Source: Candidatus Latescibacterota bacterium
Lineage (GTDB): Bacteria > Latescibacterota > UBA2968 > UBA8231
Assembly: GCA_965217585.1 (NCBI GenBank)
Contig: OZ244561.1
Span: 2,976,001-3,040,000, forward strand
Reading direction: 5' to 3'
DNA length: 64,000 nt
A model generated the notes under the pieces. That model did no database searches. It saw nothing but the letters and a program-made list of their open reading frames with translations, and had not been told where the DNA came from. A program made the translations under genes and the position numbers. Positions 10,551 through 33,672 of this stretch are shown piece by piece. Every line of letters begins with the position of its first letter. Position 1 is the first letter of the stretch.

Positions 10551-10571
10551 GCCGTACGCACCGCGTACGCT

Positions 10572-12996: not shown

Positions 12997-13000
12997 AGTC

Positions 13001-13669
13001 GTGAGCGGTCAGTCCGCTTTAATCGTCGGCAACGGCGAGCCACCTTCCCGAGCACTATTCGCCGCCTGTGCTCGGGAAGCCGAGTTGATTCTGTGCGCCG
13101 ACGGCGGTGCTAATATCGCCTCGGCGTACGGGTACGTGCCCGATTACATCGTCGGCGATCTCGACTCGGTCAGCCGCCAAAGCAAGGCCGCCCTTGCCGC
13201 CGACCGCCTTATCCTCGTTGACCCCGAGGGCGATGTGGGCACGGATGGCCAAAAGGTCCTCAACCACGCTGTCGCTTTGGGTGTTACCAAAGCCGTCCTC
13301 CTCGGTTTTACGGGACGGCGCACCGATCACCTGCTGGGCAATTTGAGTCTGCTCAAGACCTTTGCCGACCACCTCACCTTGCGATTAGTTGACGACTACT
13401 GCGACATCCGCCTCATCGACCGCCGCATCCGCTTTCGCGCCGCCCTTGGCCAGAAAATTTCCCTGTGCCCACTCGACGGCGCGGCGGAAGGTATTGAGAC
13501 GTTTGGATTAAAATGGCCCTTGCGGTCCGAGAGCCTGATCCCGGGCGTGCGCGAGGGCATCTCCAATGAGGTGGTGGACAATCCGGTCGAGATTAGGGTC
13601 GGGCGCGGCGACTTGCTGTTGTGTGTGCAGCGAGAGCGCGCGTCCGGGCAGATCGAGTTGCTGGATTAG
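13001..13669 (+). CDS. thiN: thiamine pyrophosphokinase
   Basis: LIVGNGE, CADGGAN, PDYIVGDLDS, TD, G.RTDHLLGN, GLKWPL, GISNEV. Confidence 0.92.
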   Translation: MSGQSALIVGNGEPPSRALFAACAREAELILCADGGANIASAYGYVPDYIVGDLDSVSRQSKAALAADRLILVDPEGDVGTDGQKVLNHAVALGVTKAVLLGFTGRRTDHLLGNLSLLKTFADHLTLRLVDDYCDIRLIDRRIRFRAALGQKISLCPLDGAAEGIETFGLKWPLRSESLIPGVREGISNEVVDNPVEIRVGRGDLLLCVQRERASGQIELLD

Positions 13670-13681
13670 TTCCCCGACGAA

Positions 13682-14632
13682 TCAGGCCGAGCAGCTAGCG
13701 CCCCCGAGGACGCAAAACTGGGCGCAGTGGGGGTGGTTGAGCTTCACCGGGCCCCAGGCTTCGGTTAGGGTCCGGCCCATCTCAAAGGCCGCGTCATACG
13801 GTAGCAGGGTACAGGAGAGCACGACCGGAGAATCCACTCCCTTGCGCTTGACGACCATGCGCGACGAGGCGCACATGATGTCGTCGGGCGATTGGCCGAG
13901 CAGGTCCCAGCAGCCGGTGGTGATCTCGGGAACATCAACGGAGGAGTTCATCTCTGGGAAGATGATGAGCTGGCTGGGGTCGATCGCGTCAATGCGCACG
14001 CCGAGGTCGGCGAAGAGACGGGCGAAGCCAGCGCGCAATTCGCTCTCTTCGTCACCCCAGAGCGTGCGGCCGGCGGCTGTTAGGCGGAAGCCGCAATCGG
14101 AGAGCCAGCGCAAGCCCTCGATCATCGGTGCCCAAGAGCGCTCGCCGCGCTCCGCCTCGTGCAGCGCCGACTCGTAGTGGTCGATGGAGACGCGGATCGT
14201 CAGCCGGTCGCCGTGCGCGTCGCGCAGCCGCAGCAGGCCGTCGGCGCACTTCATCATCGGTCGCATGGCGTTGGTCAGCACCAAGCTCTCGAAGCCCCGT
14301 CCCAGCACGTCCTCAAGCATGCCGAGCATCTCGGGATTCATAAAAGGCTCGCCGCCGGTGAAGCCGATTTCGCGCGTGCTCAGCCGGTCGCGCTCAATTT
14401 CGTCGAGGTACGCTGCCACCTCTGCTGCTGTGAGGTACATTAGACGGTCGTTGCGCGGACTCGATTCGATGTAGCAGTTGGCACACTCTAGGTTGCAAAG
14501 GGTGCCGGTGTTGAACCACAAGGTTTCCAGCCGCGTCAACGCCACGCGAGCTCGCTCCTCTCCGTCGGCGGTGACGTCGGGGTCTTGGAACTTGCGTGGG
14601 TCTAGGCGGGGCGGGGCTTGCGCTTGGGTCAT
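13682..14632 (-). CDS. radical SAM protein
   Basis: CNLECANC (CxxxCxxC), FTGGEPF, LTN, VSID, Cys-rich C-terminus HPHCAQFCVLGGASCS. Confidence 0.88.
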   Translation of the reverse strand: MTQAQAPPRLDPRKFQDPDVTADGEERARVALTRLETLWFNTGTLCNLECANCYIESSPRNDRLMYLTAAEVAAYLDEIERDRLSTREIGFTGGEPFMNPEMLGMLEDVLGRGFESLVLTNAMRPMMKCADGLLRLRDAHGDRLTIRVSIDHYESALHEAERGERSWAPMIEGLRWLSDCGFRLTAAGRTLWGDEESELRAGFARLFADLGVRIDAIDPSQLIIFPEMNSSVDVPEITTGCWDLLGQSPDDIMCASSRMVVKRKGVDSPVVLSCTLLPYDAAFEMGRTLTEAWGPVKLNHPHCAQFCVLGGASCSA

Positions 14633-14825
14633 GCTGCCTCCGGTCTGGGTCTCGTCATCCAAGGCGACGGGGATGCGGGTGTTGACCGCTTGGGCGTCGT
14701 GCGGCTGCTAAAAGAGTCGATAGCTTAATAGACTGTCAAGGTAAGCTACAGTTCTGGGAGCCGTATTTACAGGGGCTATGGCGAAGGAAGATTGCGGCGC
14801 GATCGTAAAGTAGAGTCTTATCTAG

Positions 14826-14948
14826 GGCATCCGCGACGGCCTCTCCAACGAGGTGGTGGACAACCCGGTCGAAATGGTGGGACGCGGCGATCTGCTGTTG
14901 TGCGTGCAGCGGCAGAGCGCGTCCGGGCAGATCGAGCCGCTGAATTAG
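14826..14948 (+). pseudogene. duplicated, diverged 3' end of thiN
   Basis: Reads GIRDGLSNEVVDNPVEMVGRGDLLLCVQRQSASGQIEPLN*, versus thiN 13544-13669 GVREGISNEVVDNPVEIRVGRGDLLLCVQRERASGQIELLD*. Confidence 0.9.
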
Positions 14949-15607
14949 TCGCTGTCCCAAGCCAGCGATAGCTGAATCCCAACCTGCCCGGTCCCCAATT
15001 CCAAGCGCGGCGCGATCTCCACTCCCTGCTCCTGCTTTTCGTCGCCCAACGCGAGCAACTGCCACCCAGCGAGGGCAAAGGCCGCCGCAGTCATCCAGCT
15101 CATCTGGCTTTGGGTGTCGCGGCTGTTGGCGCGGTCCAAAAAGCGCTCGGCTTCTTGCGGCGTGCTGGCCTTTTGGTAGCGCCGATAAGCGTCGTCGCCC
15201 TGCTGGCGAAAGTCCCAGCTTTTGACGAGCAGTATCGCGCTCCCGCTGCAAAGGGCCCAGCCCCAAGCGCGGCGCGACGTCATCCAGCCACGATCTGCGC
15301 CCCTTACCGACCATGCCACCGCCCCTAAACCCATCGCCCCCATCACCACCGCCCGCGTGTCGAATCGTCGGCGCTCGTCGTAGAAGATCTGCGCGTCGCT
15401 GCTGGACTCTGTCCGCTCGTAGCGCTCGTCGGCCCGGTTGGCTTCCCGCCGCGCCTGATAGGCTTCGCTGAGCAGCCAGCCGCCGGCACCCAGCGCGATA
15501 TAGCTGGCTACTTTGCGCGAGAGGCGCGGACCATCCGCTCGCGCCTCTCCGAGCGACGCCAGCGTCAGGATGCAGGCCAGTGTTAGAATGCTCCGTCTGT
15601 TGTTCAC
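14945..15607 (-). CDS. hypothetical membrane protein with two internal TM-helix repeats (DUF5683-like)
   Basis: Signal peptide; two similar units (TM, A..Y..Y...S..A..F.D.....DT, TM); GTGA overlap with the TolC-family gene stop. Confidence 0.7.
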   Translation of the reverse strand: MNNRRSILTLACILTLASLGEARADGPRLSRKVASYIALGAGGWLLSEAYQARREANRADERYERTESSSDAQIFYDERRRFDTRAVVMGAMGLGAVAWSVRGADRGWMTSRRAWGWALCSGSAILLVKSWDFRQQGDDAYRRYQKASTPQEAERFLDRANSRDTQSQMSWMTAAAFALAGWQLLALGDEKQEQGVEIAPRLELGTGQVGIQLSLAWDSD

Positions 15608-16983
15608 CGCAGGTCTCCACGCCCTCTGGCGGCGACGGGTTTCCCCACCGCTTGGTCGAGCTGGGCTAGCTGGATGTGGTAGTTGAAAATGGCCTGGACT
15701 AAGTCGTTGCGCGCCGCAAAAAGGCTCGCTTGCGCTTGGAGCCGCTCTAGCTGCGTTCCGGTGGACAAAGCATAGCGCTCCTGCGCCAGCTTGTAGCTTT
15801 CCTCGGCAGCGCTGACCGCGATCTGGTTGGCCTCAATGCTGCGCCGATATAGCTCGATATTGAGGAAGGCTCTTTTAATATCCAGTGCCACCTGCCGCTT
15901 AGCTTGGTCGAAGTCTTCCATGCGCTGGCGGTAGTTCAGCTTTTGCGACTTGATGGAATTCTGGGTGCTCAAGCGGTTGAATAACGGCAGCCCCAGGCTC
16001 ACGCTGAACGAGTAGCCGTAGTTTTTCAAAAAGAGATCTTCCGGCCCCGCAAACGTCTCGTCGGCCCGCAGTCGCCAGTTGTAGCCGGTGCTCATGCTCA
16101 CGGTCGGGTGCAGCAACTCGTAGCGGGTCCCGCGCAGGTCCTCCTCGGCTTGCAGCAATAAAAACTCCTGCGACCGCAAGTCCGGGCGGTGCTCCAGCGC
16201 CAAGGCCAAGGCTTCCTCGTAGCTCAGCGCGAGCGGTACCATCGCAAATTCCTCCTCGACCGGCACAATCGGTTCGTAGGTCCGCAAGCCCATGGCAAAG
16301 GCCAAGTCGGCACCAGTCACCGCGACGCTGTTTTCGCGGTCGATTAGGTTCGCCCGTGCGCTGGCCAACGCGGCCCGCTCCGTCAGCACATCCGACAGGG
16401 GCACCGAGCGGACCTCGAAGAGCGTCTCGGCCCGGCGCAGGCTCTCCTCTGAGACCCGCACCTGCTCGGTCTGTACCTTCATCAGTTCAATAGCCTGCAA
16501 TAAGCTGAAGTATCCCTGCTTGACCTCAAAGACTACTTGCTGCTGGCTCGTACTCAGGTCCATCTCGGCCGCCTTGTGCCCCAGTTTGCTCGACGCTAGG
16601 GCGGTCCAGTTGCCGCGATTGTACAGGTTCATACTGAAGCCGGTACCCAGCGACTGCGAGCCGCTGGAGGTGCTCTCGCCGAGGGTAGAGGTGACCTCGC
16701 CGGTGGCTGGATCGACAAAGGATCCCTCGCGCGGCCCGGAGACGCTGCGCGACATCCCGTAGGAGGCGCTGATCGATGGTAGAAAGGCATTGCGAGCGTT
16801 CCCGATTTGGATCGCCGCGGCTTCGATATTGGAGCGGCCCTGGATGACCGCGGCGCTCTGCTCTAGGGCGATGGCGATGCAGTCGTCCATGCTCAAGCGG
16901 AGCGCCGCTGGCTCTGCTGCGCCGCTGGGGCGCGTCAGGACCCCCACCACCAGCCAGCAGAAAACGGTGTGTTTACTTTTCAC
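15604..16983 (-). CDS. TolC family outer membrane efflux protein
   Basis: LSMDDCIAIALEQS, FLPSISAS, VKQGYFSLL, ALEHRPDL, LPLF, A.ESYKLAQERY..G; GTG start overlaps the upstream stop. Confidence 0.9.
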   Translation of the reverse strand: MKSKHTVFCWLVVGVLTRPSGAAEPAALRLSMDDCIAIALEQSAAVIQGRSNIEAAAIQIGNARNAFLPSISASYGMSRSVSGPREGSFVDPATGEVTSTLGESTSSGSQSLGTGFSMNLYNRGNWTALASSKLGHKAAEMDLSTSQQQVVFEVKQGYFSLLQAIELMKVQTEQVRVSEESLRRAETLFEVRSVPLSDVLTERAALASARANLIDRENSVAVTGADLAFAMGLRTYEPIVPVEEEFAMVPLALSYEEALALALEHRPDLRSQEFLLLQAEEDLRGTRYELLHPTVSMSTGYNWRLRADETFAGPEDLFLKNYGYSFSVSLGLPLFNRLSTQNSIKSQKLNYRQRMEDFDQAKRQVALDIKRAFLNIELYRRSIEANQIAVSAAEESYKLAQERYALSTGTQLERLQAQASLFAARNDLVQAIFNYHIQLAQLDQAVGKPVAARGRGDLR

Positions 16984-17699
16984 GAGAGCAGCCTTTCTCG
17001 CTGCGCCATCTGCCGCAGCCCCGAAAAGAGCAAGAGCGCACCGCCGAGCACCAGCGTCGCGCGGTTGAGCGCGACCATCTCGGCCCACACCGCATCGTCT
17101 AGGCCCAGCGGCAGGCTAAAGGGATTTAAGAAGAGAAAGTAAGCGGTCTCCGCCAGCGACTCGGCGCTCAGCAATACCGCGACCAGTACTCCCAGCGAAA
17201 GCATCCCGGCCGTATTGCTGCTCTTGCAGAGCACCGAAAAGAAGAAGGTCAGATTGGCGATCAGAAACGCCGGTGCGAACGCATTGAGTCCGCCCAGCGC
17301 GAACGGAAATTCGGCGAAGAGGAAATAGGCCGCCGCACTCATGCCCAGCAGGGTCGCCGCCAATAGCAGGTAAACGGCCACCATCCGCAGCGCCCAGATC
17401 CCGTAGTGCGAGGTGGAAGTGCTAAAGAGCGCCTCCAGCGTCCGGCGGTCGCGCTCGCCGGCCACCAGATCCATCGCTAGGTAAATCGCCAAGACCGCGC
17501 CGGGGATCTCCACCAGCACGTAGGGGGCCTGCCCGGCGCTGAACCCCTCGTCCGGCCGGAACACCGCCAGTGCGTAGAGCACTCCGTAGTATGTGGCGAT
17601 ACCCAAAACCATGAGCAGCAGCTTGCGGTGAAAGACGATCCGCGCACTGAGCCAGCACTGGGCGACTAAGCTGGCAAACAGGGTGGTCCAAGTCAGCAC
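16980..17699 (-). CDS. ABC-2 type transporter permease
   Basis: About six TM helices, cytoplasmic GERDRRTLEALFSTS motif, NPF near the C-terminus. Confidence 0.8.
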   Translation of the reverse strand: MLTWTTLFASLVAQCWLSARIVFHRKLLLMVLGIATYYGVLYALAVFRPDEGFSAGQAPYVLVEIPGAVLAIYLAMDLVAGERDRRTLEALFSTSTSHYGIWALRMVAVYLLLAATLLGMSAAAYFLFAEFPFALGGLNAFAPAFLIANLTFFFSVLCKSSNTAGMLSLGVLVAVLLSAESLAETAYFLFLNPFSLPLGLDDAVWAEMVALNRATLVLGGALLLFSGLRQMAQRERLLS

Positions 17700-20600
17700 G
17701 AGGGCACGTTCTCCCGTCTCAACACATAGATGTAGGCGTCCTCCAGCGTCGGCTCGACGGGCACGGCCGCCAGCCCCGGCACGGCGTCCGCAGCCAGAAA
17801 CCGCACGCGAATGCCGGCGGGTGCGCGCAAGTGCGAGATCACGTTGACCTGCTCGCCGATCCGGGATAGCTCCTCTTCGGCGACGACCGCCTCCCACGCA
17901 TGGCCTTGCGCCAGATCGCGCATGGCCTGCGGCGTGCCCTCGTAGAGGATGCGGCCGGCATTGAGCACTGCGAGGCGGTTGCAGCTACCGGAAATATCCT
18001 CGACGATGTGGGTCGAGAAAAGGACGATCCGCTCCTGACTGATCCGCGCCAACAGGTTGCGGAAGCGAATCCGCTCCACCGGATCTAGGCCCGCGGTCGG
18101 CTCGTCAACGACGATGATCTGCGGCAGATGCAGCAGGGTCTGCGCGATCCCCACGCGCTGCTTCATGCCGCCGGAAAACGAGCCGATCAGGTCGTCTTGC
18201 CGCCCGTCGAGATTGACCTGTTCGAGGCTGGCACCGACCCGGGCGCGGCGCAGGGCCGGGTCGCGGAATCCCTCCAGCAGGGCGCGATACTCTAGATACT
18301 GATAGGCCGTCAGGTGCTCGTAGAGGCCGAAGTGCTGGGGCAAATAGCCGATCACCCCCTGCACTGGGCCGCGGCGGGTGACATTGACGCCGTCAAAGGC
18401 CACCGATCCCGAGCTTGGCTCCAGCACTTGCGATATGATCCGCATCAGCGTCGTCTTGCCGGCCCCGTTGGGGCCGAGCAGGCCGAACATGCCGCGCCCG
18501 ATCTCCAAGTTGACCCCATAGAGGGCTTGGTATTGCGGCCTTTCCACGCCGATCAGGGGCAGGGCCGCCGCCCCGCGATACGCCCTGCGCACCAGCCACG
18601 CCAGCCGACCTGCCAGCGCCGCCGGATCCACCTCGCCGCGGCGCACCCGGTCGGCCAACAGACGCGCCCCCTGATAGCCCAGCCACACCGCCAGCGAGGC
18701 GACCGTCAGCGAAGGCAGTGCCAAGCGTTGATGTACATAGCCAACCAATAGCAGCGGCACCGCCCATTGCGCCAGCGCGTGCGCCCCCGCGCCCAGACCA
18801 AGCAAAGCCCCCTGCCGCAGCACGTGGGCCACCAAGCCCCACGTCGCCAGCGAGAGCAGGTAGAGCCAGAGCGCGTCCGCAAAGTAGGTGTGTAGAAAGC
18901 CGAGGAGCACCAACAGCGGCAGCTTCCAGCTCAAGCCGTCCTTGATCGCTTTGCGATCTACCGGGTCAATACCTTGAGTCCGCAGTCTTGAGTCGCGGCG
19001 GTCGAAGCGCGTCCACTCCCGGCGGAAGCGCCCGGGGGCACCGTAGATCTTGGTCAGGGTTTGCAGGCGGATCGAATGCACCGCCGGCACCTCGTGCCGC
19101 GCCGCCCGGGCGCGGTAGATCCGCAGGGCAAGCGCGGCCACTCCGAGCAGCAAAAACCACAGCGGCAGCGCCAAGAGCACCGGCCAGAACAGGCTCGCGG
19201 ACTCCATATACAACGCGACCACAGCCGCCGCCGCGACCACAGTCGCCAATCCCACGCCGACGCGGCCGATCCCCCTGAGCCACGCCCGCACCTGATCCAG
19301 CCCCATATAGGCCACCGGCACGAAGATCAGCGTCGAGACCATCGACACCGCCAGCCCCCCCAAGACGGTGATGGCGAAGGGCGGCCAGACCTCGTAGTCG
19401 CCGCCGAAGTCGAGCGCCAAAGGCATCACGCCCAACAGGGTCGTCGCCGAGGTCATCAGGATCGGCCGCACCCTGGAGCGAGCGGCCGCCAGCACCGCCC
19501 GCTCGCGGCGGCAGCCTTCCCGCTCGCGGAGCGTGCCAATGGCGTCGATGAGGATAATGCCGTTGTTGACGGCAATGCCGATCAACACGATAAAGCCCAG
19601 CAGAGCCATCGGCCCCGCCTGCGAGCTTAGCCCGGTGCCCGTCAGCATCAGCGCCCAGCACGAGCCAATCGCCGCGGTCGGCAGGGTGCAAAAGATCAGC
19701 AGCGGCGAGGCGAACGATTCAAAGAGCGAGGCCAGCACCATGTAGGTCAGCACCGCCGCGATCCCCATCATCCAGTAGTAGATCGCATCCGTTGCGACCT
19801 CGGCGATCTCGATGGTGTAGTCGCCGGGCAGCACCAAGTCTTGGACCACTGCCCGCACTTGGTCCCGCGCCGCGTCGAGCAGGGGCTGCGAGTCGAGGAT
19901 TTCGTCTGTGAACTGATAGGAGACCACCACGCGCCGCGCTTGGTCGGTGCGCAGGATACTATTGCGCCCCTCGTCGGTGCGCACCTTGGCCAGCTCCGCA
20001 AGCGGCACATACTCACCCGTACTGGTCAGCACCGGAATGGCCCCAACCCCGGCGCGCCCGGGCCCATCGGCCTCTGGGTCTGCGGTCGGCCGCACCTCGA
20101 TGGGGATCTCGCTGCCGTCGGCCTTGAGGAAATCCGTCTGTGCTGCGAAGCCTTCTGGATTGGCGTTGGCTATCGCGCTCAGGACGGTGTTGACGCGCAG
20201 GTCGTGGTCGAAAAGCGCCAGCGGACGGGGAATCACCTGGATCTCGGGGCCGCTGCGCTGGAGGTCGGGCCGCACGCTGTTGGCGTCGATTTCCTCCAAC
20301 TCTTCGAGCCGATAGGACAAATCGTCGGCGATCATCTGCAACACCGCGAAGTCGTACCCCTTGATCAGCGCCGTCTCTGAGGTGGCCCCCGCCTGCAAGT
20401 TGAAACCCCCGGTCCCCCCGGTCCCCCCGGTCCCCCCCCCGCGTCCGCCACCCCGTCCCCTGCCGCCGCCGAAACTGCTAGCCTGCGGTTCGTAGCCGAT
20501 CAGGGCACCCTGAATTTCCTGCAACTCGCCGTCGAGCTGGTCCTTCAATTCCTCGGCCGACACCCGCTCGGGCCGCTCGTCGCGGTCGAGGAGCATCACC

Positions 20601-25300: not shown

Positions 25301-25440
25301 ACTGTGATGACCGGCGTGTGCATGTTGGGCAGCAGGTCGGTCCCCAATTTGCTTAGGGAGATCGCCCCCAACAGCGCCACCGCGAGGGTCAGCATCAACA
25401 CGGTGACGGGATAGCGGGTGGAAAACTCAGGTAGCGACAT
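22393..25440 (-). CDS. RND (AcrB/AcrD/AcrF family) efflux permease
   Basis: FSTRYPV, LVDNAIVVIENI, VNDSIVLVD, RLRPILMTT, PMAIAVIGGL. Confidence 0.93.
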   Translation of the reverse strand: MSLPEFSTRYPVTVLMLTLAVALLGAISLSKLGTDLLPNMHTPVITVDLQVPGKAPQEVEEQYTRRLERDISTISGVARVYSITRSGQSVVVAEFDWEADMDFALIDVQKKMGVYATDEDIETLDVIQEDPQALPVMRIAVSATELADLDELLGAVETVVKPKLEALAGVASADIEGDAEKEIRVTLDPYLLEAFGQDADQVIAAITSANEDVSGGTLREAQQSYQVKGLGRLKDLADVRNVIVGARQGAGVEAGLQVPVYVREVGRVALEYAERETIVRLDGVECIGLALYKEAGSNTVQVINRVLESIGELDQDLPELRFAVVENQARFIEEAVAEVKEAALHGAVLAVGVLLFFLRSWTATLVIGLAIPISILATFTLMYFEDLTLNIMTLGGLALGAGMLVDNAIVVIENIYRHLERGEDARQASTKGASEVGVAITASTLTTVSVFLPIVYLQGLTSELFKDQAWTVAFSLVSSLAVAMMTVPMLTSRFLRGRGGATTEQRWLRFRALLNAVLDHKGVVLLLVAATGAGTAYVARAIPTEFIPREDQGLFHVELSLAQGSRLELTDRVAKRVGEIIGEVGGDDVAGVYARAGVDPARLANIGDPTGPNRATLSVALAQQTSRNLPQLVEVVDAQLAQIPELDVQYQLHETALEGVLGERTAPVQVEIIGDEVEVLRRLCADLAARLEELPSVYNVTSNFQGGQPEIDLRLREDAVVASGLTVATIVQALERRLSGEVIGELSKDQRSRDIRVGFARFDLRELPQLRIDAPDGAILALGDLSDPILVEGPREILREDQRRVGRVAGYLVEGAVLGEAIGQVEQVVNSMALPRGYRIAIGGEERERQESFADLQFALLLSVVLVYMVMASLFESLLHPFTVMLTVPLAGVGVVWAFWGLGEPLSAMAYIGIIMLGGIAVNDSIVLVDRINQLRAQLPTVRAAVLQGAQDRLRPILMTTATTILALAPMAIGVGEGAALRAPMAIAVIGGLISATLMTLVVIPVAYETVERLR

Positions 25441-25450
25441 AATGCGAGTA

Positions 25451-26548
25451 CTATCTCCCCGGCCCGCCCCGACCACCTGCCCCCCTAGCCTCTCCGGTCC
25501 CCGTTACACTGACCCGCGTCCGCGACCGCAGGGTCTCGTAGTTGCTCGTAATCAGCCGCTCCCCCTCCTCCACGCCGCGCAGCACCTCCACGAACGTTTC
25601 GTCCTCTAGCCCGGTCTCAATTTCCCGCATCTGCGCCCGTGCGCTTTCTTCGACGAATACGACCTCGCGATTCCTCCTCACTAGCACCAACTCGCGCGGT
25701 ACCAGCACCACGTCGGCGTGCGACTCGACCACGATCTCGGCCTTGACGAACATCCCTGGCCGCAGCAAGTGCTCGGGGTTGTCTATCGCCGCCACCGCGC
25801 GAAAGGTCCGCGTCGCGGCATCCACCACCGGGTCAACCGCGACGATGCGGCCGGCGAACACCTCGTCCGGGTAGGAGTAATCGACCGCCCGCACGGGCTG
25901 ATCCAGCGCGATGTGGCGGATTTGCGAGTTGGGAATCTGCAAGTCGAGCAGCACCGCGCTGTAATCGACGATGCGGCAGATCTGGATGTTCGCCTCGACC
26001 AGCGTCTGCTCGCTGGCGTCGGTGAACTCGCTGAGCACCCCGGAGATCGGGGCGGTAATTGCGGTCTTGCCGATCTGGACCAAGGCGTCGTCGTAGTCCG
26101 ACTGCGCGTCGGCCAAATCCTTGCGCGCCGCTTCGACATCGAACTGGGTCACCAAGCCGCGCTCGACTAGGACTTCTTGTTCGGCGAGGGTTTGGCGCGC
26201 GTTCTGCACGGCCAGCTTGCGCGCCTCCAGCCGGGCACCGACCACCAGTTCCTCGTTGTCGAGGCGGGCGAGCACTTGGCCCTGCTGCACGGCCATCCCC
26301 TCGGTCGGCTTGCGCCCGTCGCCTAGTTGGACCAGCGACAGGAACCCCCGCGTCTCGGTGACCACCACTGCTTCCTGCACTGACCGCAGGGTGCCGGTGG
26401 AGGTAACGACGGACTCGATGGTCCCCAACCCCACCGGCTGCACGGTGACCGGGACCGTCAAATCGGCCGTCTGCTGGACGGTCTCGCTTTCGCAGCCGAT
26501 TAGCAACAGGAGCGCCCATGCCGAGGCGCATAGGATTGTATATCGCAT
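25451..26548 (-). CDS. RND periplasmic adaptor (MFP) lipoprotein
   Basis: Lipobox LIGC; V..GQVLARLD, ITAPISGV, P.VD.ATRTF, LRPGMF; GAGG upstream of ATG. Confidence 0.92.
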   Translation of the reverse strand: MRYTILCASAWALLLLIGCESETVQQTADLTVPVTVQPVGLGTIESVVTSTGTLRSVQEAVVVTETRGFLSLVQLGDGRKPTEGMAVQQGQVLARLDNEELVVGARLEARKLAVQNARQTLAEQEVLVERGLVTQFDVEAARKDLADAQSDYDDALVQIGKTAITAPISGVLSEFTDASEQTLVEANIQICRIVDYSAVLLDLQIPNSQIRHIALDQPVRAVDYSYPDEVFAGRIVAVDPVVDAATRTFRAVAAIDNPEHLLRPGMFVKAEIVVESHADVVLVPRELVLVRRNREVVFVEESARAQMREIETGLEDETFVEVLRGVEEGERLITSNYETLRSRTRVSVTGTGEARGAGGRGGPGR

Positions 26549-26563
26549 ATTTACCTCAGAGCA

Positions 26564-26588
26564 GGGCAAGCACAAGGGCTGCCCCGAC
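26564..26588 (-). repeat. degenerate REP-like palindrome
   Basis: Minus strand GTCGGGGCAGCCCTTGTGCTTGCCC resembles the element at 32844-32868. Confidence 0.55.
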
Positions 26589-26635
26589 AAGATTTGTTGG
26601 TATAGATGCTTTAGGATGTGCCCTACGGATATGTC

Positions 26636-29600
26636 TCAAAATACCTTGTTCAACCAACGGGTAATAGCGCTCGGTTGCTGCCGCCCGCCACCGCGACCGC
26701 CGCGACCGCCGCGACCGCCGCGACCGCGCCAATTGCCGAAAGACCCCACATCTTCCTCGTAGGCGGCCTCTGGGTTGTCTGGGTCAATCCAGCGCCAGCG
26801 CACTGCATCGGCGTAGAGTTGGCCGCTGGCTTGGTCGGACAGCTCGACCCGCGCCCTTTCGCCTTCGGCAAAGTGAAATCGCCCCAGCAAATTCCAGCCG
26901 CCTTGCAGCGTCTCGCTCTTGAGCGCGAGAGTATCTACCACACCCCCATGCGCGACCGCGAGCGAAAACGATTCGGCCAAGCTCAACCCAAAGCGCCGAC
27001 TAAACCGCGACGGCACGAAATAGTACGCCACGTCGTAGAAGCCCGCCTTGGGCAGCGTGGTCGTCCACACCGCCGGCTGCGCCCCATCGCCGGGCGGCTT
27101 CCAGCGGAAATTGGTCTCGTAGCGGCCGAAGGCAAGAGGCAGCTCCTGCACCTGCCAGTTGTCGCCTCTAAGCCCGGGGCGCAGGTAGCGTTGCACCCGG
27201 CGGATCGGCATGGAAAAGCCCTCGTCGTCGTTGTCGACTACGATCTCCGAGAAAAAGTTTTCCTCGTCTTCTACGACTCGCACGTAGGATTTGGGATAGC
27301 CGGCAAAGACCTGCTCGGGGATGCTCAAGGCGGCGACAATCGGCCGCTGGTTTTTGGCCAAAAACGGCTCGACCATCACCCGGAACGGCCGTGCAAAAAG
27401 CACCATGGACACCTCGACCTCCTGCCCGCCTTCAATGGCAATCGCCTTTGCGGCTTGGTCCTCGCGCCCAAGGGCCTGCACCTCGACAAAGCCGCGGCCC
27501 GGCTCGCCGTTTTTGATCCGCACGATCACCTGGTACACCACTGCGCCCCAGCCGTCGTCCATCTTCTTGGCCGTCGCCCGGGTCAGGGTATAGCCCGGCA
27601 CGTGGGTTCCGTAGATCCAGTCGTGGACTAGCTGCTGCACGTCGATCTTCTGGCGGCCAACTTCCCCGTCGGGGACGACCGCATCCTCAAAATCGGCAAA
27701 GGAGACCTGCTGGTACTTGTTGTTCTCGTCAAAGGTGCCGACCGCTTCGATAAATTGGTCGGCCCCCAGCACCGACTTGACGACCCGGAAGATGGACAGG
27801 CTCTTGGCTTTGAGGATCGACCGGTAGAGGGCGGGTTCGGCGGCTTTGTCCATTTCCGCCAGCGAGTGCTGCTGCATCTCTACCACCAGCGTGTCCCAAG
27901 CCGGGCCGGTGTTAGCGGCGGGCCGGGGGGCACCGCCGGGGCCGCCGCCCCGAGAGCGCATCATGCTGCTGATCATCCGCGCCATTCCGCCGCTCATCCG
28001 GCCGCCCCAGCGGCTCGAAAACATCGCCATCCGCAAGTCGGCGCTGACGTCTTCCTGCATGTAGAGCGGCAACCCGCGCGCGACTAGGTCGGCGTGCTCG
28101 CCGCCGAAGCCGCGGTCAAAGGACCATAGCTGCACCAGTGGGCTGCGAAACAGGCCGCTACGCCCTCCTTCGGGACTCAAGAAATCCTGGAAGAGTGCCC
28201 CGACCAGCACGTCTTTTTTGGCTTGCGCCTCGTCTTGGTCGCCGCGCCGCCGCGCCATCCGCGCATCAAAGTCGCGCTGGAAGCGGTGGCCCATCAACAC
28301 GTCCTCCTCAATCATCAGCACCCCTGGCTGCACTAGGCCACCGCGCTCCTCCCAGCCCTCGTAGTACCACTGCACCAAGAAGGGCACCTCCACCAGCGAG
28401 AGCCTCGGGTACGAGTATTTCAGCCCCGTCTCCTGCTCCATCGCGTCGAAAAGCTGGTCGATGGTCTCTACTACTTTGTCGGGAGCGTCGGCGAAAAAGC
28501 GCACCGGGCGCAGGTGGGCCGGATGGACATAGAGGGCGAACTCGACCTCGCGGACCGTGGTCTTATAGACCTCGTAGCGGCCGGCGTGTAGAGAAAAAAG
28601 CGGCACCGGATAATCCACCTGCCACTGCGTGCGGACGCGCCCGCCTTGGTCCTCTTGGGCTATGGGTCGCCCCTGCGTGACCACCTCCAGCCCAGCGGGC
28701 ACCGACACCGCGATCTCTGCCGTGGCAAACGAAGGCGGCGGCGGCACTTGCGGGTGGTAGGCTACCCCGGCGATGGGATACCAGCCGCTGCGTGGGGGCA
28801 AAAAGACCGATTCGCCGCGGATCCAGGCCGTCAGGTCGCCCTTGATAAACGGCCACTTGTTCTTGTGCAGCCGCACCTCGTCGCGCAGCAGATCAAAGCC
28901 TTGGCGGTCGATGTCGCCGTCGTAGGCCAGCGTCAAGGTCTGCTCAGCCCCGGCGGCCAGCGGCGCGGCGACCCGGATCACGGCCGCACCCCGCTTCCAC
29001 CCCAACTCGTTGCCGGCCGCATCCTGCACCGACCGCAGCGTCAAGCCGGGGTTGAGCGCAAAAATCAGCGTATCCAGCGCGCCGTCGTGGTCGTTGTACA
29101 ATCGCAACTGGGCCTTGGCCGCCAGCGGCGCATCCTCGCCAGCCAACGCGACCTCCAGCCGGTAGTGCGCCACCTGCGGTACCGGCGCGTCTGCGTAGCG
29201 ATATTGCTCGGCGAGCAGGCGCTGGCGATAGGCTTGGTTGGCTTGGTCTTGGGCGTCGATGTGCTGATACAGCCCCACCGCCGCCAACAGCCCCACCCCG
29301 GCCATGCCCCGGCCGACCCAAGCCCATCCCAGCGACTGGGACAGGCGCGGATAGCGCTCTATCGACAGGCCAAAAAAGAACAGCCCGAGGGCTAAGTAAA
29401 AAAGCCGCTGGTCGATCACCCGCGATATATCGCCCAAGCCGATCATGTCCGAGTAGAAAAGCGGGGCGAAAAAGGCCCCAAAGTCCCACCAGCCGCCGTA
29501 GCCCTCGCCGAGGTAAAACAACACCGCGAGCGCGTAGGCCATAGTCAGCAGGGCGACAGCCGTCTGGTGCCGCAACACAGCGCCTAAAAAGAAGGTCAGG

Positions 29601-30094
29601 GCCGACATGTACAGCAGCGCCGGCAGGGTCATCACCAGCAGGTACAGCAGATAGGGCCGCAGCGTGAACGGCGCGTCGAGCAGGCTGATCTTGGCCGCTT
29701 GGACGGCCACCGTCAAAACCAGCACCGCCAAGCTCAAGGTCAGCAGTGCCCCGAGGACCCCGAGGTACTTGCCGATGACCAGTTCGGCGGTCGCTATCGG
29801 CCGCCCGGCGATCACCTCGTGGACCCCGGCCCGCTCGTCGGCGGCGCGGAAGTCGCCGACGATAAAGGCGATCACGACCGCCTGTACATAGCTATAGACG
29901 TAAAAGGGGACAAACGCCCCCATGCCCAGCGCCGAGCTGAACTCGATCCCCCGCGCTTCGAGCACGGCTAAGCCGACGCCAATCAGCAGCGGCAGCGCGA
30001 CCCCGATGCTGCCGAGGATGCGGAAGCGGGTGGTCCGCAAGAGCAGCATCCGCTCGTAGCGGGCCACGCCGAGGATGTTGTGGACGGCGCGCAT
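26636..30094 (-). CDS. ABC-2 permease fused to an M1-aminopeptidase-like domain (no HExxH) and a C-terminal golvesin/xanthan-lyase-like beta-sandwich
   Basis: N-terminal TMs with DERAGVHEVIAGRP...GKYLG; M1-like YRLEV, WYP, YPRLSLVEVP, K....VLG.DQF; C-terminal IVVDNDD.GF...W...G.YDV...GWNLLGRF...ADAVRW. Confidence 0.78.
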   Translation of the reverse strand: MRAVHNILGVARYERMLLLRTTRFRILGSIGVALPLLIGVGLAVLEARGIEFSSALGMGAFVPFYVYSYVQAVVIAFIVGDFRAADERAGVHEVIAGRPIATAELVIGKYLGVLGALLTLSLAVLVLTVAVQAAKISLLDAPFTLRPYLLYLLVMTLPALLYMSALTFFLGAVLRHQTAVALLTMAYALAVLFYLGEGYGGWWDFGAFFAPLFYSDMIGLGDISRVIDQRLFYLALGLFFFGLSIERYPRLSQSLGWAWVGRGMAGVGLLAAVGLYQHIDAQDQANQAYRQRLLAEQYRYADAPVPQVAHYRLEVALAGEDAPLAAKAQLRLYNDHDGALDTLIFALNPGLTLRSVQDAAGNELGWKRGAAVIRVAAPLAAGAEQTLTLAYDGDIDRQGFDLLRDEVRLHKNKWPFIKGDLTAWIRGESVFLPPRSGWYPIAGVAYHPQVPPPPSFATAEIAVSVPAGLEVVTQGRPIAQEDQGGRVRTQWQVDYPVPLFSLHAGRYEVYKTTVREVEFALYVHPAHLRPVRFFADAPDKVVETIDQLFDAMEQETGLKYSYPRLSLVEVPFLVQWYYEGWEERGGLVQPGVLMIEEDVLMGHRFQRDFDARMARRRGDQDEAQAKKDVLVGALFQDFLSPEGGRSGLFRSPLVQLWSFDRGFGGEHADLVARGLPLYMQEDVSADLRMAMFSSRWGGRMSGGMARMISSMMRSRGGGPGGAPRPAANTGPAWDTLVVEMQQHSLAEMDKAAEPALYRSILKAKSLSIFRVVKSVLGADQFIEAVGTFDENNKYQQVSFADFEDAVVPDGEVGRQKIDVQQLVHDWIYGTHVPGYTLTRATAKKMDDGWGAVVYQVIVRIKNGEPGRGFVEVQALGREDQAAKAIAIEGGQEVEVSMVLFARPFRVMVEPFLAKNQRPIVAALSIPEQVFAGYPKSYVRVVEDEENFFSEIVVDNDDEGFSMPIRRVQRYLRPGLRGDNWQVQELPLAFGRYETNFRWKPPGDGAQPAVWTTTLPKAGFYDVAYYFVPSRFSRRFGLSLAESFSLAVAHGGVVDTLALKSETLQGGWNLLGRFHFAEGERARVELSDQASGQLYADAVRWRWIDPDNPEAAYEEDVGSFGNWRGRGGRGGRGGRGGGRQQPSAITRWLNKVF

Positions 30095-30099
30095 GGCGT

Positions 30100-30972
30100 T
30101 TAGGCCGATCCCATAAAATAGATATAGGCGTCTTCGAGGCTGGGCGCGGTCGGCACGGCACCCGGCGGCGGTGCTGCGTCGCCGACGATCCTGAGCGCCA
30201 TGCCGACGCCGTCGGCGCTGATGTTGACCACGCTAAAGCGGCTGGCGATGGCCTCAAACCCGTCGTCGTCGGTCTGCAAAAGCCAGGTTTTGCCCTCGGC
30301 CTTGGCGACGAAGTCCGCGGGTGCGCCGTGGAAGCGCAGCCGTCCCTGATGCAATACGGCCAAGTCCTCGCAGGTGCTCGAAATATCGCCGACGATGTGG
30401 GTCGAGATGAGAATGGTGCGGCTGGCGCTCAGCCTCCCCAAAATGGCCCGGAAGCGGATCCGCTCCTCTGGGTCAAGCCCGACGGTCGGCTCATCGACGA
30501 TGATAAACTCAGGGTCGGCCAAAATCACCTGCGCGATGCCAAGCCGCCGCCGCATCCCCCCCGAAAAGGTGCCGGTCTTGCGCTCGCGCACCTCGTAGAG
30601 ACCCACGTCCTCCAAAGCTTGGGCGACCCTTTCGCGGCGCTGCCGCTGGCCGTGCAACCCGCCGAGCCGCCCCATGTAGTCGAGGAATTCCCAAGCCGAA
30701 AGCTGCGGGTACGCGCCGAAGTGCTGCGGCAAGTAGCCGAGCCGCCGCCGCACCTCGGCGCGGTCCTTTTGCAAGTCCCAGCCGTCGATCTCCACCGCGC
30801 CCGCGCTGGGCACCATCTGGGTGGAGAGAATTTTGATCAGCGTGGTCTTACCCGCGCCGTTGGGTCCTAAGAGACCAAACGTCCCGTGGCGGATCTCCAA
30901 GCTCAGGTCAGCAAGCGCCGGAACCTCGTTGCGGCCATAGGTCTTGCTCAGGTTTTGGATGCGTATTCTCAA
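30100..30972 (-). CDS. ABC transporter ATP-binding protein
   Basis: IQNLSKTY, GPNGAGKTT, GYLPQ, FSGGMRRR, VDEPTVGLDP, STH, PSLEDAY. Confidence 0.95.
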   Translation of the reverse strand: MRIRIQNLSKTYGRNEVPALADLSLEIRHGTFGLLGPNGAGKTTLIKILSTQMVPSAGAVEIDGWDLQKDRAEVRRRLGYLPQHFGAYPQLSAWEFLDYMGRLGGLHGQRQRRERVAQALEDVGLYEVRERKTGTFSGGMRRRLGIAQVILADPEFIIVDEPTVGLDPEERIRFRAILGRLSASRTILISTHIVGDISSTCEDLAVLHQGRLRFHGAPADFVAKAEGKTWLLQTDDDGFEAIASRFSVVNISADGVGMALRIVGDAAPPPGAVPTAPSLEDAYIYFMGSA

Positions 30973-31430
30973 AAACCACCGCCACCACCGCCACCACCGC
31001 CGCGGGGACCGCCGCGGGGACCGCCGCGGCCGCCGAAGTTCCTGCGGCGCTCTTGCTGCTCTTGCATATGCGCTTTCAGTGCCTCGACCTGCTCTTTCTC
31101 CAAGACCTCAGTAAGCACCCCCATGATCTTGGTTTGTATCTCCATTTGCATCTCGCGCATGGTCTCGCGCATGGACCGGAAATCGACCTCGCCGCTGAAC
31201 ATCTTCGCCATTGCCTGCTGTCGCTTTGCGTAGAGCGGCTTGAGGCTGGTCCGCAGTGCGAGTACCTGCTCGTCGGTCACGTTGAATTTCTCCTCGAACG
31301 CCAGCAGACCGAAAATCTGGTCCGGCGACATACCGCCGCGACCACCGCCGCCCGGCTGCGCTTCAAGCGGCAAAACGCCCAACAGACCAATGCCCAAGGC
31401 CCAAAAGGCCGACTTGCGAATGCGTGTCAT
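30969..31430 (-). CDS. small periplasmic helical protein, Spy/CpxP-like, with Gly/Arg-rich termini
   Basis: ATG 31430 with GGAGGA; signal peptide; VTDEQ and VLEKEQ (LTxxQ-like) motifs; Met-rich helices. Confidence 0.7.
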   Translation of the reverse strand: MTRIRKSAFWALGIGLLGVLPLEAQPGGGGRGGMSPDQIFGLLAFEEKFNVTDEQVLALRTSLKPLYAKRQQAMAKMFSGEVDFRSMRETMREMQMEIQTKIMGVLTEVLEKEQVEALKAHMQEQQERRRNFGGRGGPRGGPRGGGGGGGGGF

Positions 31431-31470
31431 ACAATCCTCCACGTAAAAGGTTGGGATGAAACTACAGACA

Positions 31471-31499
31471 TTAGACACCCCGTCCCTCCGATCCATTCC
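31471..31499 (-). promoter_or_regulatory. ECF (sigmaE-like) promoter of the ABC-RND operon
   Basis: Minus strand GGAAT-N18-GTCTAA, about 40 nt upstream of the first ATG. Confidence 0.55.
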
Positions 31500-31583
31500 C
31501 GCCTTTCGCCCGATAGTGGGTGCTGATGGATAAAGGGCCAGTAAGGCGGAGAACGCAAGAAGGCCCTCTTGCGCGGGACGGAT

Positions 31584-31712
31584 CTCCTCGGTTTTACGGG
31601 ACGGCGCACCGACCACTTGCTGTGCAACCCGGTCGAAATTCGGGTCGGGCGCGGCGACTTGTTGCTGTACGGGCCGCGGGAAGGAGGCGCTGGCGAAACT
31701 TTGGTGAGATGA
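31584..31712 (+). pseudogene. internally deleted thiN remnant
   Basis: 29-nt exact match to thiN 13298-13326, continuing LLGFTGRRTDHLL, joined at CAA to NPVEIRVGRGDLLL (thiN ~13579 onward), i.e. a 240-nt in-frame deletion. Confidence 0.88.
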
Positions 31713-31746: not shown

Positions 31747-32823
31747 ATGAAGACGCACACAGTAGCGATCATCGGCCTCGGGCGCATGGGCAGCACCATC
31801 GACGACGAAGGGCACGGCGACGTGCCCTATTCGGTCGCGGCCGCGACCAAGGCGAGCGAGCGGTTGGAACTCGTGGCCGGAGCGGACCTCCTGCCGGATA
31901 AGCGCGATGCCTTTCAAAGCCGCTGGGGAGCAGCCGTGTACGAAGACTTCCGCGACATGATCCGTCGCGAAGAGCCAGACCTCGTGGCCATCTGCACGGC
32001 GGCCTGTTTGCCCAAGCCCGCCAGAGAGGCCCCGGACGCGAGTTTTCGCGGCGATTCGCACGCCGACCTAGCGGTGGCGGTGGCCGATCTGGGCGTGCCG
32101 ATGATCTTCCTCGAAAAGGCCATGGCCAGTTCAATGGAGCGCGCCGACGAAATCCGCGATGCCGTAAAGCGCAACAACGCACTCTTCAACACGGGCGTCC
32201 TGCGTCGCTTTGACAACCGCTACGAGGTGGTCAAGGACGCGGTCGCCGCCGGTCAGGTCGGCGAGGTCCGGGCCGCGATTCACTACGCCAGCTCCAGCCT
32301 GATGCACGGGCACATCCATTCGATCGACACGGTGTCCTATCTCATCGGCGACCCGGCGATTGCCGCCGTGCGCGGCGAGCTTTTGCCCCGAGGCTTGCAA
32401 GTCGAGGGCAATCACATTCCGGCCGACCCTTTGGCCACCTATCAACTGCGCTTTGCCAACGGCGTCGAAGCGTGGTCAATTCCCGCGACCCCGTGGGAAT
32501 TCGAGGTCATCGGCTCGGAGGGCGCAATTCGCTCGTGCAACAACGGGGCCGACGTTTTGCTGCGTCGGCCCGGTGCCGTGCAAGGACGGAGCGCCTTGTG
32601 GGAGGAGGTGCCCGTCGATCCGGTGACGCCGCGCAGTACGACGCAGTGCTGCTTGGAGGATTTGGTAGCGGCGCGCGAATCCGGCCAACCCACGCGCGGC
32701 CACATCGACGTGACTCACCACATCACAGAAGCCACCATCGCCGTAGCCGAGAGCCACCGCCAAGGCGGCGCTTGGGTAGAGTTGCCGCTGCCTGCGCGTG
32801 ACCTGTACATTTTTCACATCTAG
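31747..32823 (+). CDS. Gfo/Idh/MocA family oxidoreductase
   Basis: VAIIGLGRMG, PDLVAICT, LEKAMA, RRF, H.ID; AGGAG RBS. Confidence 0.92.
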   Translation: MKTHTVAIIGLGRMGSTIDDEGHGDVPYSVAAATKASERLELVAGADLLPDKRDAFQSRWGAAVYEDFRDMIRREEPDLVAICTAACLPKPAREAPDASFRGDSHADLAVAVADLGVPMIFLEKAMASSMERADEIRDAVKRNNALFNTGVLRRFDNRYEVVKDAVAAGQVGEVRAAIHYASSSLMHGHIHSIDTVSYLIGDPAIAAVRGELLPRGLQVEGNHIPADPLATYQLRFANGVEAWSIPATPWEFEVIGSEGAIRSCNNGADVLLRRPGAVQGRSALWEEVPVDPVTPRSTTQCCLEDLVAARESGQPTRGHIDVTHHITEATIAVAESHRQGGAWVELPLPARDLYIFHI

Positions 32824-32886: not shown

Positions 32887-33672
32887 GTGTTAAAAGCAGG
32901 CATATTTCTCGATATGGAGAATCTCAACCGCTGTGGCGGCTACGCCATCCGGTTTCGCCAGATCAAGGCTCTGGTGGAGGCGCAGCAGGCGGTTGTGGTG
33001 CGGGCCAACGCCTATATGGCCATTGACCGCGAGCGCGAAAACACGGACCCAGAGTATCGCCAAAAGAGGGAAACGTATCGCAATCGAGCGCGGCGGGAGG
33101 GCTACCACCTGATACTCAAGGAAGTGCGGCGCTATCTCACTTCGGAAGGCGAGACCATCGTCAAGGCCGACGCCGACCTAGAGTTGGCGATAGATGCCCT
33201 GTTGCAGTCGGAGAATTTGGACTACGTGTTGTTGGGCACCGGCGACGGCGACTTCGTGCGCTTGGTGCGCGCCCTGCAAAACCGGGGCAAGCGGGTCGAT
33301 TTGCTGTCTTTTATGAACACCAGCACCGCGCTGCGCCAAGAGGTAGATTACCACTTTTCCGGGTACTTGGTGCCCGGCATTCTATTTTCTGACCGCGATT
33401 CAACCCAGCGCCTGCGCGGCATCCTGCACGCGGTCAACGAGGAGAAGGGCTACGGGTTCTTGACTGCGCAGACCGACTTGGGGCTGGACACCATACGCGA
33501 GGATATTTTTCTGCACATTACCGACCTGCGCATGGCGAGGGGCGGGGTGGTGTCCAATGCGGACTTTGCCCAGTTGAGGATGCGCGGCACGATTATCGAG
33601 TTTGAGGTGGAGGACGATGGTGATCGGAAGAAGGCCGTCAACGCCGTGGAGTTCCGACCGGAGCTACTGTAA
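32887..33672 (+). CDS. NYN (LabA/DUF88, PIN-fold) domain protein with C-terminal cold-shock/OB domain
   Basis: FLDMENL, KADADLELAID, GDGDFV.LV.ALQNRGKRV, S.ALR..VD; then EKGYGFL (RNP1) and DIFLHI (RNP2). Confidence 0.88.
   Translation: MLKAGIFLDMENLNRCGGYAIRFRQIKALVEAQQAVVVRANAYMAIDRERENTDPEYRQKRETYRNRARREGYHLILKEVRRYLTSEGETIVKADADLELAIDALLQSENLDYVLLGTGDGDFVRLVRALQNRGKRVDLLSFMNTSTALRQEVDYHFSGYLVPGILFSDRDSTQRLRGILHAVNEEKGYGFLTAQTDLGLDTIREDIFLHITDLRMARGGVVSNADFAQLRMRGTIIEFEVEDDGDRKKAVNAVEFRPELL

Follow-up and report, generated by a model that had tools for sequence, protein, structure and literature searches.

Displaced 3' ends of thiN as probable footprints of serial homologous recombination in a Latescibacterota genome

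For the tips of rhs genes, a two-step model of homologous recombination with circular intermediates was proposed in the part of Jackson et al. 2009 (PMC2935791) drawn on here, and for the arrays of the type VI secretion system (T6SS), homology-facilitated illegitimate recombination was proposed in the corresponding part of Kirchberger et al. 2017 (PMC5361080). The locus described here is that of thiN, the gene of thiamine diphosphokinase, in the genome of a Candidatus Latescibacterota bacterium (G000), in which the intact gene is followed by two partial copies of its own 3' end. It was analyzed in a stretch of 64,000 nucleotides (nt), hereafter the window, which corresponds to positions 2,976,001-3,040,000 of a single closed 7.32 Mb contig. 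It was concluded that the two thiN fragments are probably footprints of serial 3'-end displacement by homologous recombination, with no site-specific recombinase involved.

As far as that part of PMC2935791 describes them, rhs loci consist of an intact gene with 3' fragments lined up behind it, all oriented alike and each made up of a core of variable length and a divergent tip, and the intervening genes are carried along. New tips are gained laterally and old ones are shunted downstream without a recombinase, as is proposed here for thiN. The thiN fragments similarly comprise a core of variable length and a divergent tail, and the three tail types, alpha, beta, and gamma, were also found in intact genes of other genomes. 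However, compared with the rhs loci portrayed there, thiN is a small metabolic housekeeping gene, the last of a riboswitch-controlled operon, and its "tip" is merely a tail of 10-12 residues outside the Pfam domains. The locus exhibits no toxin/immunity logic and is not a polymorphic-toxin locus, although it would work like the rhs family. Its passengers are a radical S-adenosylmethionine (SAM) gene, a 16-kb transporter operon, and a three-gene block, and its displaced pieces are decaying rather than conserved.

The T6SS arrays of Vibrio cholerae, in the portion of PMC5361080 concerned with their growth, share with thiN a conserved upstream anchor, an illegitimate join at the far end, and the lack of an integrase. 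Successive events move earlier modules and gene 3' ends further downstream, and finished arrays spread between strains by ordinary homologous recombination. In contrast to the Vibrio immunity genes, which that portion presents as kept under selection, nothing suggests selection for the displaced thiN pieces, and the blocks stacked behind thiN are alternative native neighbors of the same gene in sister lineages.

Two further systems resemble the locus in topology. In the streptococcal accretion of integrative and conjugative, integrative and mobilizable, and cis-mobilizable elements, as given in part of PMC7563491, the target is likewise the 3' end of a protein-coding housekeeping gene (fda, rpsI, or rpmG), and the arrays are tandem, with repeats of the target end between elements, some of which (1.2-13 kb) have no recombination gene. 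However, the repeats in that account are att sites at a fixed position, used by a tyrosine integrase, and integrase-bearing elements occur in other strains, whereas the positions at thiN vary and no integrase was found near thiN in 29 genomes. For the tycheposons of Prochlorococcus, the part of 10.1101/2020.12.28.424599 used here reports repeated integration at one site that pushes older elements inward and leaves partial target copies; unlike at thiN, tRNA genes are targeted there by integrase-bearing elements, whose att sites are the partial tRNAs. Non-exhaustive word searches of the literature, with supplements outside their reach, returned no report of such a footprint at thiN, at housekeeping genes generally, or in Latescibacterota.

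The thiN locus and its two partial copies

The gene order given in a first-pass annotation of the window was confirmed in the sequence. Along the plus strand, intact thiN is followed by a radical-SAM gene (minus strand), thiN copy 2, a minus-strand operon, thiN copy 3, and a Gfo/Idh/MocA gene (plus strand), with both cargoes on the strand opposite to thiN and its two downstream partial copies. The features are as follows, with protein lengths in amino acids (aa).

10463..10560, plus strand: thiamine pyrophosphate (TPP) riboswitch directly 5' of the receptor gene (Rfam RF00059, 66.8 bits against a gathering score of 54.3, E 6e-11)
10549..12996, plus strand: TonB-dependent receptor (Pfam TonB_dep_Rec_b-barrel, Plug, CarboxypepD_reg)
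12986..13669, plus strand: intact thiN, thiamine diphosphokinase, with a beta-type C-terminal tail (Pfam TPK_catalytic, TPK_B1_binding; NCBIfam TIGR01378, 138 bits)
13682..14662, minus strand: radical-SAM gene, convergent with thiN (Pfam Radical_SAM; no NCBIfam model above cut-off)
14663..14811, no strand: non-coding stretch 5' of the radical-SAM gene, ending in junction J and common to genomes G001, G013, G002, and G007
14812..14948, plus strand: thiN copy 2, displaced 3' end (thiN nt 545-684) with a beta-type tail (BLAST, 82% identity, E 7.2e-33)
14945..15607, minus strand: 220-aa gene, last of the operon block, its stop overlapping the stop of copy 2
15604..31430, minus strand: efflux/ATP-binding cassette (ABC) operon (Pfam OEP, ABC2_membrane_2, ACR_tran, ABC_tran, HlyD, Golvesin_C)
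31584..31712, plus strand: thiN copy 3, displaced 3' end with an alpha-type tail, thiN nt 313-356 joined to nt 594-stop
31747..32823, plus strand: Gfo/Idh/MocA oxidoreductase (Pfam), constant right flank
32887..33672, plus strand: NYN-CSD gene (Pfam), constant right flank

Copies 2 and 3 were the only significant matches to thiN when the closed genome was searched by BLAST, the next best having an E value of 0.05. Copy 3 matched in two parts, nt 313-356 at 93% identity (E 3.2e-11) and nt 594-650 at 82% (E 8.7e-9). About 237 nt (thiN nt 357-593) are missing from it, and the break lies at an imperfect 10-nt microhomology, TGCTGGGCAA versus TGGTGGACAA. To the left of copy 2, weak thiN likeness in the stretch 14663-14811 may extend back to about thiN nt 470.

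The first-pass annotation had derived copy 2 from another functional allele and had called its changes largely synonymous or conservative. The derivation was borne out, as the nearest intact allele was that of G044 (12.3% different, versus 15.9% for the thiN of the same genome) and the tails matched other alleles. As for the changes, copy 2 differed from its own thiN at 22 of 138 aligned nt, distributed 8/2/12 over the codon positions (p 0.03 versus uniform); among intact thiN genes, the corresponding shares are 24/19/57%. This pattern agrees with the description, but an in-frame TAG and a 3-nt deletion do not, and both of these also occur in the copy of G001. Because of the codon pattern and the TAG and deletion common with G001, copy 2 appears to have diverged mostly as a working gene and to have been silenced before G000 and G001 split. 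Whether the TAG is also common to the remnants in G013 and G002 was considered, but the alignment was ambiguous and the site was not used. Copy 3 was nearest to the alleles of the empty form described below (19-21% different, versus 31% for its own thiN), and its changes were spread evenly over the codon positions (5/5/8). With its 237-nt deletion as well, it appears older and more decayed than copy 2, as expected of the layer furthest from the intact gene.

Forms of the locus in related genomes

Of the 31 genomes in the genus, 29 yielded thiN, and the completeness of the other two is 87% and 75%. A region of 13-40 kb around each thiN was retrieved, and the window proteins were mapped onto it. 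As the first-pass annotation had anticipated, relatives exhibited both empty sites and other cargo, and the arrangement was not fixed. In form A, the empty form, thiN stands directly before the Gfo/Idh gene (5 of 29 genomes). Form B, in 11 of 29, consists of thiN, the radical-SAM gene, and the Gfo/Idh gene, the last of which is cut in one case, G011. Form C was found in 6 of 29 and consists of thiN, a block of three plus-strand genes (X3), a thiN fragment, the radical-SAM gene, and the Gfo/Idh gene; a beta fragment to the left of the radical-SAM gene was detectable in four of these six. Form D, that of the window, was found in two of 29, G000 and G001. In a deep clade of five genomes, whose thiN is 62-67% identical, thiN is followed by a spacer of 0.7-5.5 kb and then by the operon; no thiN fragment was found in these five, and their Gfo/Idh orthologue is located elsewhere. 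Similarly, no thiN fragment was found in 20 metagenome loci, save two weak minus-strand chance matches.

The receptor gene adjoins thiN at each of the 29 loci of the genus, likewise in the genera g22 and g21, and at 29 of 42 metagenome loci examined; in the window, the end of the receptor gene and the start of thiN overlap by 11 nt. Because a TPP riboswitch was found upstream of receptor and thiN, the three form a TPP-riboswitch-controlled thiamine salvage operon (uptake and pyrophosphorylation) with thiN as its last gene, in which the TonB-dependent receptor would presumably import thiamine. This conserved block would be the homologous anchor of the locus, with the receptor as its first gene. 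In G005 and G046 (loci L041 and L097), the receptor is only 58-60% identical to that of the window, while the adjoining thiN is 83-89% identical, which points to a replaced receptor allele or a different paralogue. On the right, the Gfo/Idh and NYN-CSD genes both follow the locus in 23 of 24 main-clade genomes. The exception is G011 (L048, oriented about 5900-6000), where the alpha remnant and the first 70 nt or so of the Gfo/Idh gene are kept and unrelated DNA follows; this truncation is another breakpoint at the same spot.

The intact thiN genes share ...GTGCAGCGGGAG, after which one of the three tails follows, beyond the TPK_B1_binding domain that ends at residue 208 of 227. As the tails can be aligned residue by residue, they are diverged alleles and not unrelated sequence, and both alpha and beta keep an open frame. 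Each tail type belongs to particular forms. The alpha tail is that of form A, where it runs straight into the region upstream of the Gfo/Idh gene; the beta tail is that of forms B and D, where it abuts the stop of the radical-SAM gene; and the gamma tail is that of form C, where it precedes X3. Homology between the versions of the locus breaks off directly behind the stop codon. Up to the start codon of the Gfo/Idh gene, copy 3 runs colinear with the working alpha 3' end of the empty-site genomes, and an alpha tail of at least about 30 nt still lies beside that gene in all 19 loci of forms B, C, and D. Each block thus consists of a complete thiN 3' end with its own neighbor, followed by the previous, truncated 3' end. 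A dinucleotide of the alpha tail that seemed to track the locus type was dropped, as the pattern was broken by G042 and G008.

The truncated ends start at different points. Behind the operon, the previous end starts at thiN nt 313; behind the radical-SAM gene, it starts between nt 470 or so and at most 527, at a junction common to G000, G001, G013, G002, and G007; and behind X3, it starts at nt 545, a position common to G007, G041, and G043. No motif shared by junctions of either kind was found when the three fragment starts were compared. The order of thiN followed by 3' fragments on the same strand recurs in G001, and beta fragments were found in G007, G019, G041, and G043. The fragment of G041 differs by 4.7% from the thiN of G044 and by 19.7% from that of its own genome. 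In G043 (L094, oriented 6830-6970), the beta fragment differs from the genome's own thiN at about two of 100 positions before the tail, versus about 20% for the G041 counterpart; this near-identity suggests either gene conversion between the copies or a recent event.

The first-pass annotation had spoken of serially acquired, incoming DNA, but a foreign origin of the two cargo blocks did not hold. In sister genus g22, the radical-SAM gene is convergent to a beta-tailed thiN behind the same receptor gene in all three loci read, and in g21 it lies 1.9 kb behind thiN in one locus; three genomes of a different family have it with no thiN nearby. Of 168 phylum genomes, 42 carry it, and it is absent from all five empty-site and all five deep-clade genomes. 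The stretch 14663-14811 had no counterpart in g22. The operon follows thiN in all five deep-clade genomes and in seven marine metagenome contigs. Both the radical-SAM gene and the ABC operon are thus native neighbors of thiN in sister lineages rather than foreign cargo. As the blocks are native beside thiN elsewhere, the window is a concatenation of one locus in three versions, all joined within thiN. X3 alone seems to be genuinely accessory: of the 168 phylum genomes, six, all of form C, have its first gene. None of the three X3 proteins had a Pfam match, while NCBIfam named only the first (TIGR04255).

The operon of the window contains the following members, which include resistance-nodulation-division (RND) transporter genes.

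15604-17088, minus strand: outer-membrane factor
16980-17897, minus strand: ABC-2 permease
17693-22753, minus strand: RND and ABC ATPase in one frame
22393-25476, minus strand: second RND
25451-26590, minus strand: membrane-fusion protein
26636-30094, minus strand: 1152-aa protein
30100-30972, minus strand: ABC ATPase
30969-31430, minus strand: small gene

This gene order is kept in G001, in the five deep-clade genomes, and in the marine contigs. The 220-aa protein at the end of the block had no Pfam or NCBIfam match; it is 96% identical in G001 and 45-63% identical in the deep clade, and its gene always adjoins that of the outer-membrane factor. In the frame 17693-22753 (minus strand, 1686 aa), ACR_tran covers residues 123-1150 and the ABC ATPase domain covers residues 1414-1554, the two being linked by 264 aa without a Pfam match. 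The frame was open for 1570-1686 aa in all six genomes checked, down to 79% identity, and looks like a conserved RND-ABC fusion, which would be unusual.

The trees of rpoB and thiN agree in the order (g21,(g22,(deep clade, main clade))), once the misextracted rows of G164 (rpoB) and G023 (thiN), which have very long branches, are disregarded. Three further trees were compared with the locus types: rpoB (28 rows), receptor (22 rows), and Gfo/Idh with NYN (23 rows), with internal support mostly below 95. The locus types were scattered on all three, while species pairs were stable. In the receptor tree, the genes of G014 and G041 group with that of G010 (support 98), contrary to the rpoB tree, so that recombination between species at the locus is visible there. 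A second match to Rpb2 domain 6 (model positions 222-353) was noted at G000:C1:2375032-2375415 within a frame of about 1055 aa that is not rpoB; it sits at the same place in most genomes of the genus.

Proposed recombination and rival explanations

The first-pass annotation had reported neither integrase nor transposase in the window, and the scan agreed with it. No such gene was found in 36 of the 37 non-overlapping window open reading frames (ORFs) of at least 90 aa, the 37th being a 5376-aa repeat protein. This frame (36548-52678, minus strand), with at least 12 Calx-beta stretches, fn3, and cadherin, would encode a giant adhesin-like protein. Moreover, the wider recombinase search found none near thiN: in the 29 genomes, several of whose thiN contigs are short (8-35 kb), no PF00589 match lay closer to thiN than 40 kb. 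The genome of the window holds five tyrosine recombinases, the nearest 320 kb from thiN, and no serine recombinase (PF00239) was found in it; none of its 62 DDE transposase matches lies inside the window. Across the genus, the nearest tyrosine recombinase is a conserved Xer-like gene 40 kb off in G046, and most genomes have only the same three to five conserved tyrosine recombinases.

The displacement would proceed as follows. The receptor-thiN operon is conserved across the family, and the DNA 3' of the thiN stop is lineage-specific, being the radical-SAM gene, the operon, the Gfo/Idh gene, or X3. When DNA of one version of the locus meets a chromosome with another, pairing in receptor and thiN would lead to one homologous crossover. 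The other end would be closed out of register, either by a circle that carries a 5'-truncated piece of thiN and enters in a single crossover, as in the rhs model, or by an illegitimate join in the resident thiN, as in that for the T6SS modules; the intermediate could be circular or linear. The outcome would be an intact hybrid thiN whose 3' part and tail arrive with the new neighbor block, while the earlier 3' end, cut at an arbitrary 5' point, would be pushed behind that block and decay. In the window, at least two such rounds would yield thiN(beta)-radical SAM, thiN'(beta)-operon, and thiN''(alpha)-Gfo/Idh. The receptor-thiN anchor is clear, as is recombination between species in it, but the joins are too decayed to exhibit microhomology. 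Of the two routes that the first-pass annotation had allowed, att-like or homology-facilitated, the sequence fits the latter: since the junctions differ in position, share no motif, and are accompanied by no recombinases, an att site is disfavored and homologous pairing is favored. Its proposal of serial acquisition with displacement of the old 3' end was supported as to the displacement, in its homology-driven form.

Site-specific integration was weighed as an alternative, in which the thiN end would be an att site and the blocks would be integrase-less, cis-mobilizable remnants accreted with a recombinase supplied in trans. In topology, the locus matches both the tandem arrays that streptococci accumulate at the fda, rpsI, and rpmG 3' ends, as given in part of PMC7563491, and the tandem tycheposons with partial tRNAs between them, as given in part of 10.1101/2020.12.28.424599, and five tyrosine recombinases are available in the genome. 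However, an att core is hard to reconcile with junctions at thiN nt 313, about 470, and 545 that have no common motif, and the left block edges are merely the stop codon of a full-length homologous tail. Neither a tyrosine recombinase within 40 kb in 29 genomes nor a serine recombinase in G000 was found, and two of the three blocks are native neighbors of thiN in sister lineages. Moreover, about 27 other genes bear the same footprint, with no integrase in the 67 ORFs scanned at their loci, and many target specificities would be needed. This explanation was accordingly considered unlikely. Duplication in place was considered improbable as well; here, the lineage itself would have doubled thiN or a segment with its 3' part, the extra copies would have eroded from the 5' side, and only deletions would set relatives apart. 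Such a duplication would agree with outgroup comparison, by which the radical-SAM gene and the operon are ancestral neighbors of thiN, and tandem duplication junctions likewise leave 3' pieces downstream of a gene that is intact; only four of 33 positions separate the beta tail of thiN from that of copy 2, and for about 100 nt the G043 fragment is almost the same as the intact thiN of that genome. Yet alpha and beta differ at about half of the last 33 nt and at 10-15% of the preceding 100 nt, with frame and similar residues kept, as in old functional alleles, and the fragments are closer to alleles of other genomes than to their own. No cargo gene is duplicated, and homology halts at the stop codon, without a duplicated downstream segment. 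In addition, thiN(alpha)-Gfo/Idh is the functional arrangement in five genomes without any radical-SAM gene, and X3 is confined to six loci among the 168 phylum genomes.

A third alternative concerns the assembly, as the copies could be chimeric joins of co-occurring strains in a metagenome, a possibility that the first-pass annotation had raised against its own idea. Assembled Logan contigs of four public runs were compared with the window, and these runs hold several related populations with differing arrangements of the locus. Nevertheless, contigs of run X11, which may be the source sample, span both copy junctions, covering 14492-14923 with one differing letter and 31043-31797 with none. 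The window lies on a single closed contig, and G001, a separate species, exhibits the same architecture with its own sequence differences. On these three grounds, a chimera is unlikely; since at least 21 further genomes contain such fragments as well, this explanation was judged very improbable. In G014 (L049), the alpha tail is joined to a truncated radical-SAM gene, and contigs of runs X15 and X16 carry this joint (14296 to 31675 in window positions); the truncated variant therefore coexists with the form of the window. Some runs labelled sponge metagenome contained only 5-17% of the sampled words, and no habitat was drawn from them.

Several points weigh against serial displacement by homologous recombination. 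In the rpoB and flank trees, the empty form is scattered and lies nested, which calls for three or four changes, and for this reason it may be secondary rather than ancestral. Outgroup comparison makes the radical-SAM block probably ancestral, and because of this and the nested empty form, "incoming" and "resident" cannot be assigned. As junction J is common to forms B and D, one of them derives from the other: either the operon was deleted between copies 2 and 3, or it was inserted into a remnant. The remnant in G005, the sister to the form D pair, has the TTGTTGCTGT variant of copy 3, which would fit a D-like or long-remnant ancestor. None of the genomes and contigs searched contained either of two expected donor-type arrangements, intact thiN next to the 220-aa gene or thiN(gamma)-X3 lacking the beta fragment. 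The out-of-register joins, which are old and decayed, bear no microhomology or other identifying mark, and a recombinase acting in trans may be compatible with the sequence. No circular form, excision junction, or fresh event was seen in the assembled contigs of the public runs; the one long joint found, 14296 to 31675, is the arrangement of the relative G014 and not an excision. Joints between thiN and copy 2 or between copies 2 and 3 were absent among the 15 joints listed of 61 in all, which is uninformative either way.

Similar footprints elsewhere in the genome

The genome was compared with itself, which yielded 347 local direct-repeat pairs of 45-450 nt, 75-98% identical and 0.3-40 kb apart. 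Pairs were scored if one copy formed the exact 3' terminus of a long ORF and its partner was truncated. In this rough screen of a single genome without a control genome, with ORFs called from stop to stop, exact 3'-end fragments lay downstream in 28 cases (thiN included) and upstream in five (p 7e-5). Fragments near the 3' end exhibited a similar bias (32 downstream versus seven upstream), internal fragments exhibited none (34 versus 33), and 5' pieces exhibited the mirror bias (16 versus 38), part of which is an artifact of antisense ORFs.

In all, 26 of the 28 pairs were retrieved (loci L211-L236), those excluded being the pair of thiN and another whose copies lie over 20 kb apart. The anchor genes are ordinary, namely, rpoN, PhyH, SDR, Ldh_2, M20 peptidase, XdhC, and others. 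Of the 147 ORFs listed, 67, from 24 of the loci, were scanned, and none was an integrase or transposase. Several inserts are defense- or toxin-antitoxin-like (HamA with a DEAD helicase, PemK/MazF, Polbeta nucleotidyltransferase, Uma2, and DUF5615), and an ankyrin protein was also among the inserts. At the rpoN locus (L211, G000:C1:8460-11909), rpoN is followed by a HATPase_c_4 gene and then by the rpoN 3' end again, in a copy of 213 nt at 96% identity. Among relatives, rpoN homology ends at its stop codon, and the HATPase_c_4 gene adjoins rpoN in G013, lies 0.4 kb off in G012 and G002, and lies about 12 kb off in G001, G019, G010, and G022.

These results suggest that the thiN locus is one instance of a general, genome-wide process. 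It is a tentative and rather doubtful extension that integrase-free 3'-end displacement is a main route by which accessory genes, defense and toxin-antitoxin genes included, are acquired in this lineage. On that view, any conserved gene at the edge of a syntenic block could act as an anchor, and a displaced 3' end would make the block excisable and transferable between species as a circle by ordinary homologous recombination, which would amount to a recombinase-independent cassette system.

Integrases, or a double crossover with one exchange in each flank, are the usual explanation for gene gain at chromosomal hotspots. Over 29 genomes, the thiN locus would be a three-layer record of a third route, one-sided homologous recombination, which would duplicate the end of the anchor gene and stack alternative neighborhoods behind it. 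Displacement of 3' ends was previously proposed only for polymorphic-toxin loci (rhs and T6SS modules); its probable occurrence in a vitamin salvage operon suggests that the process is general and not tied to toxin diversification, and the excess of the footprint at about two dozen other ordinary genes, several with defense-type cargo, points in the same direction. Displaced 3' ends would also serve as markers of the relative order of events and of the allele of the former resident, and they can be searched for in any genome to locate integrase-free insertions.

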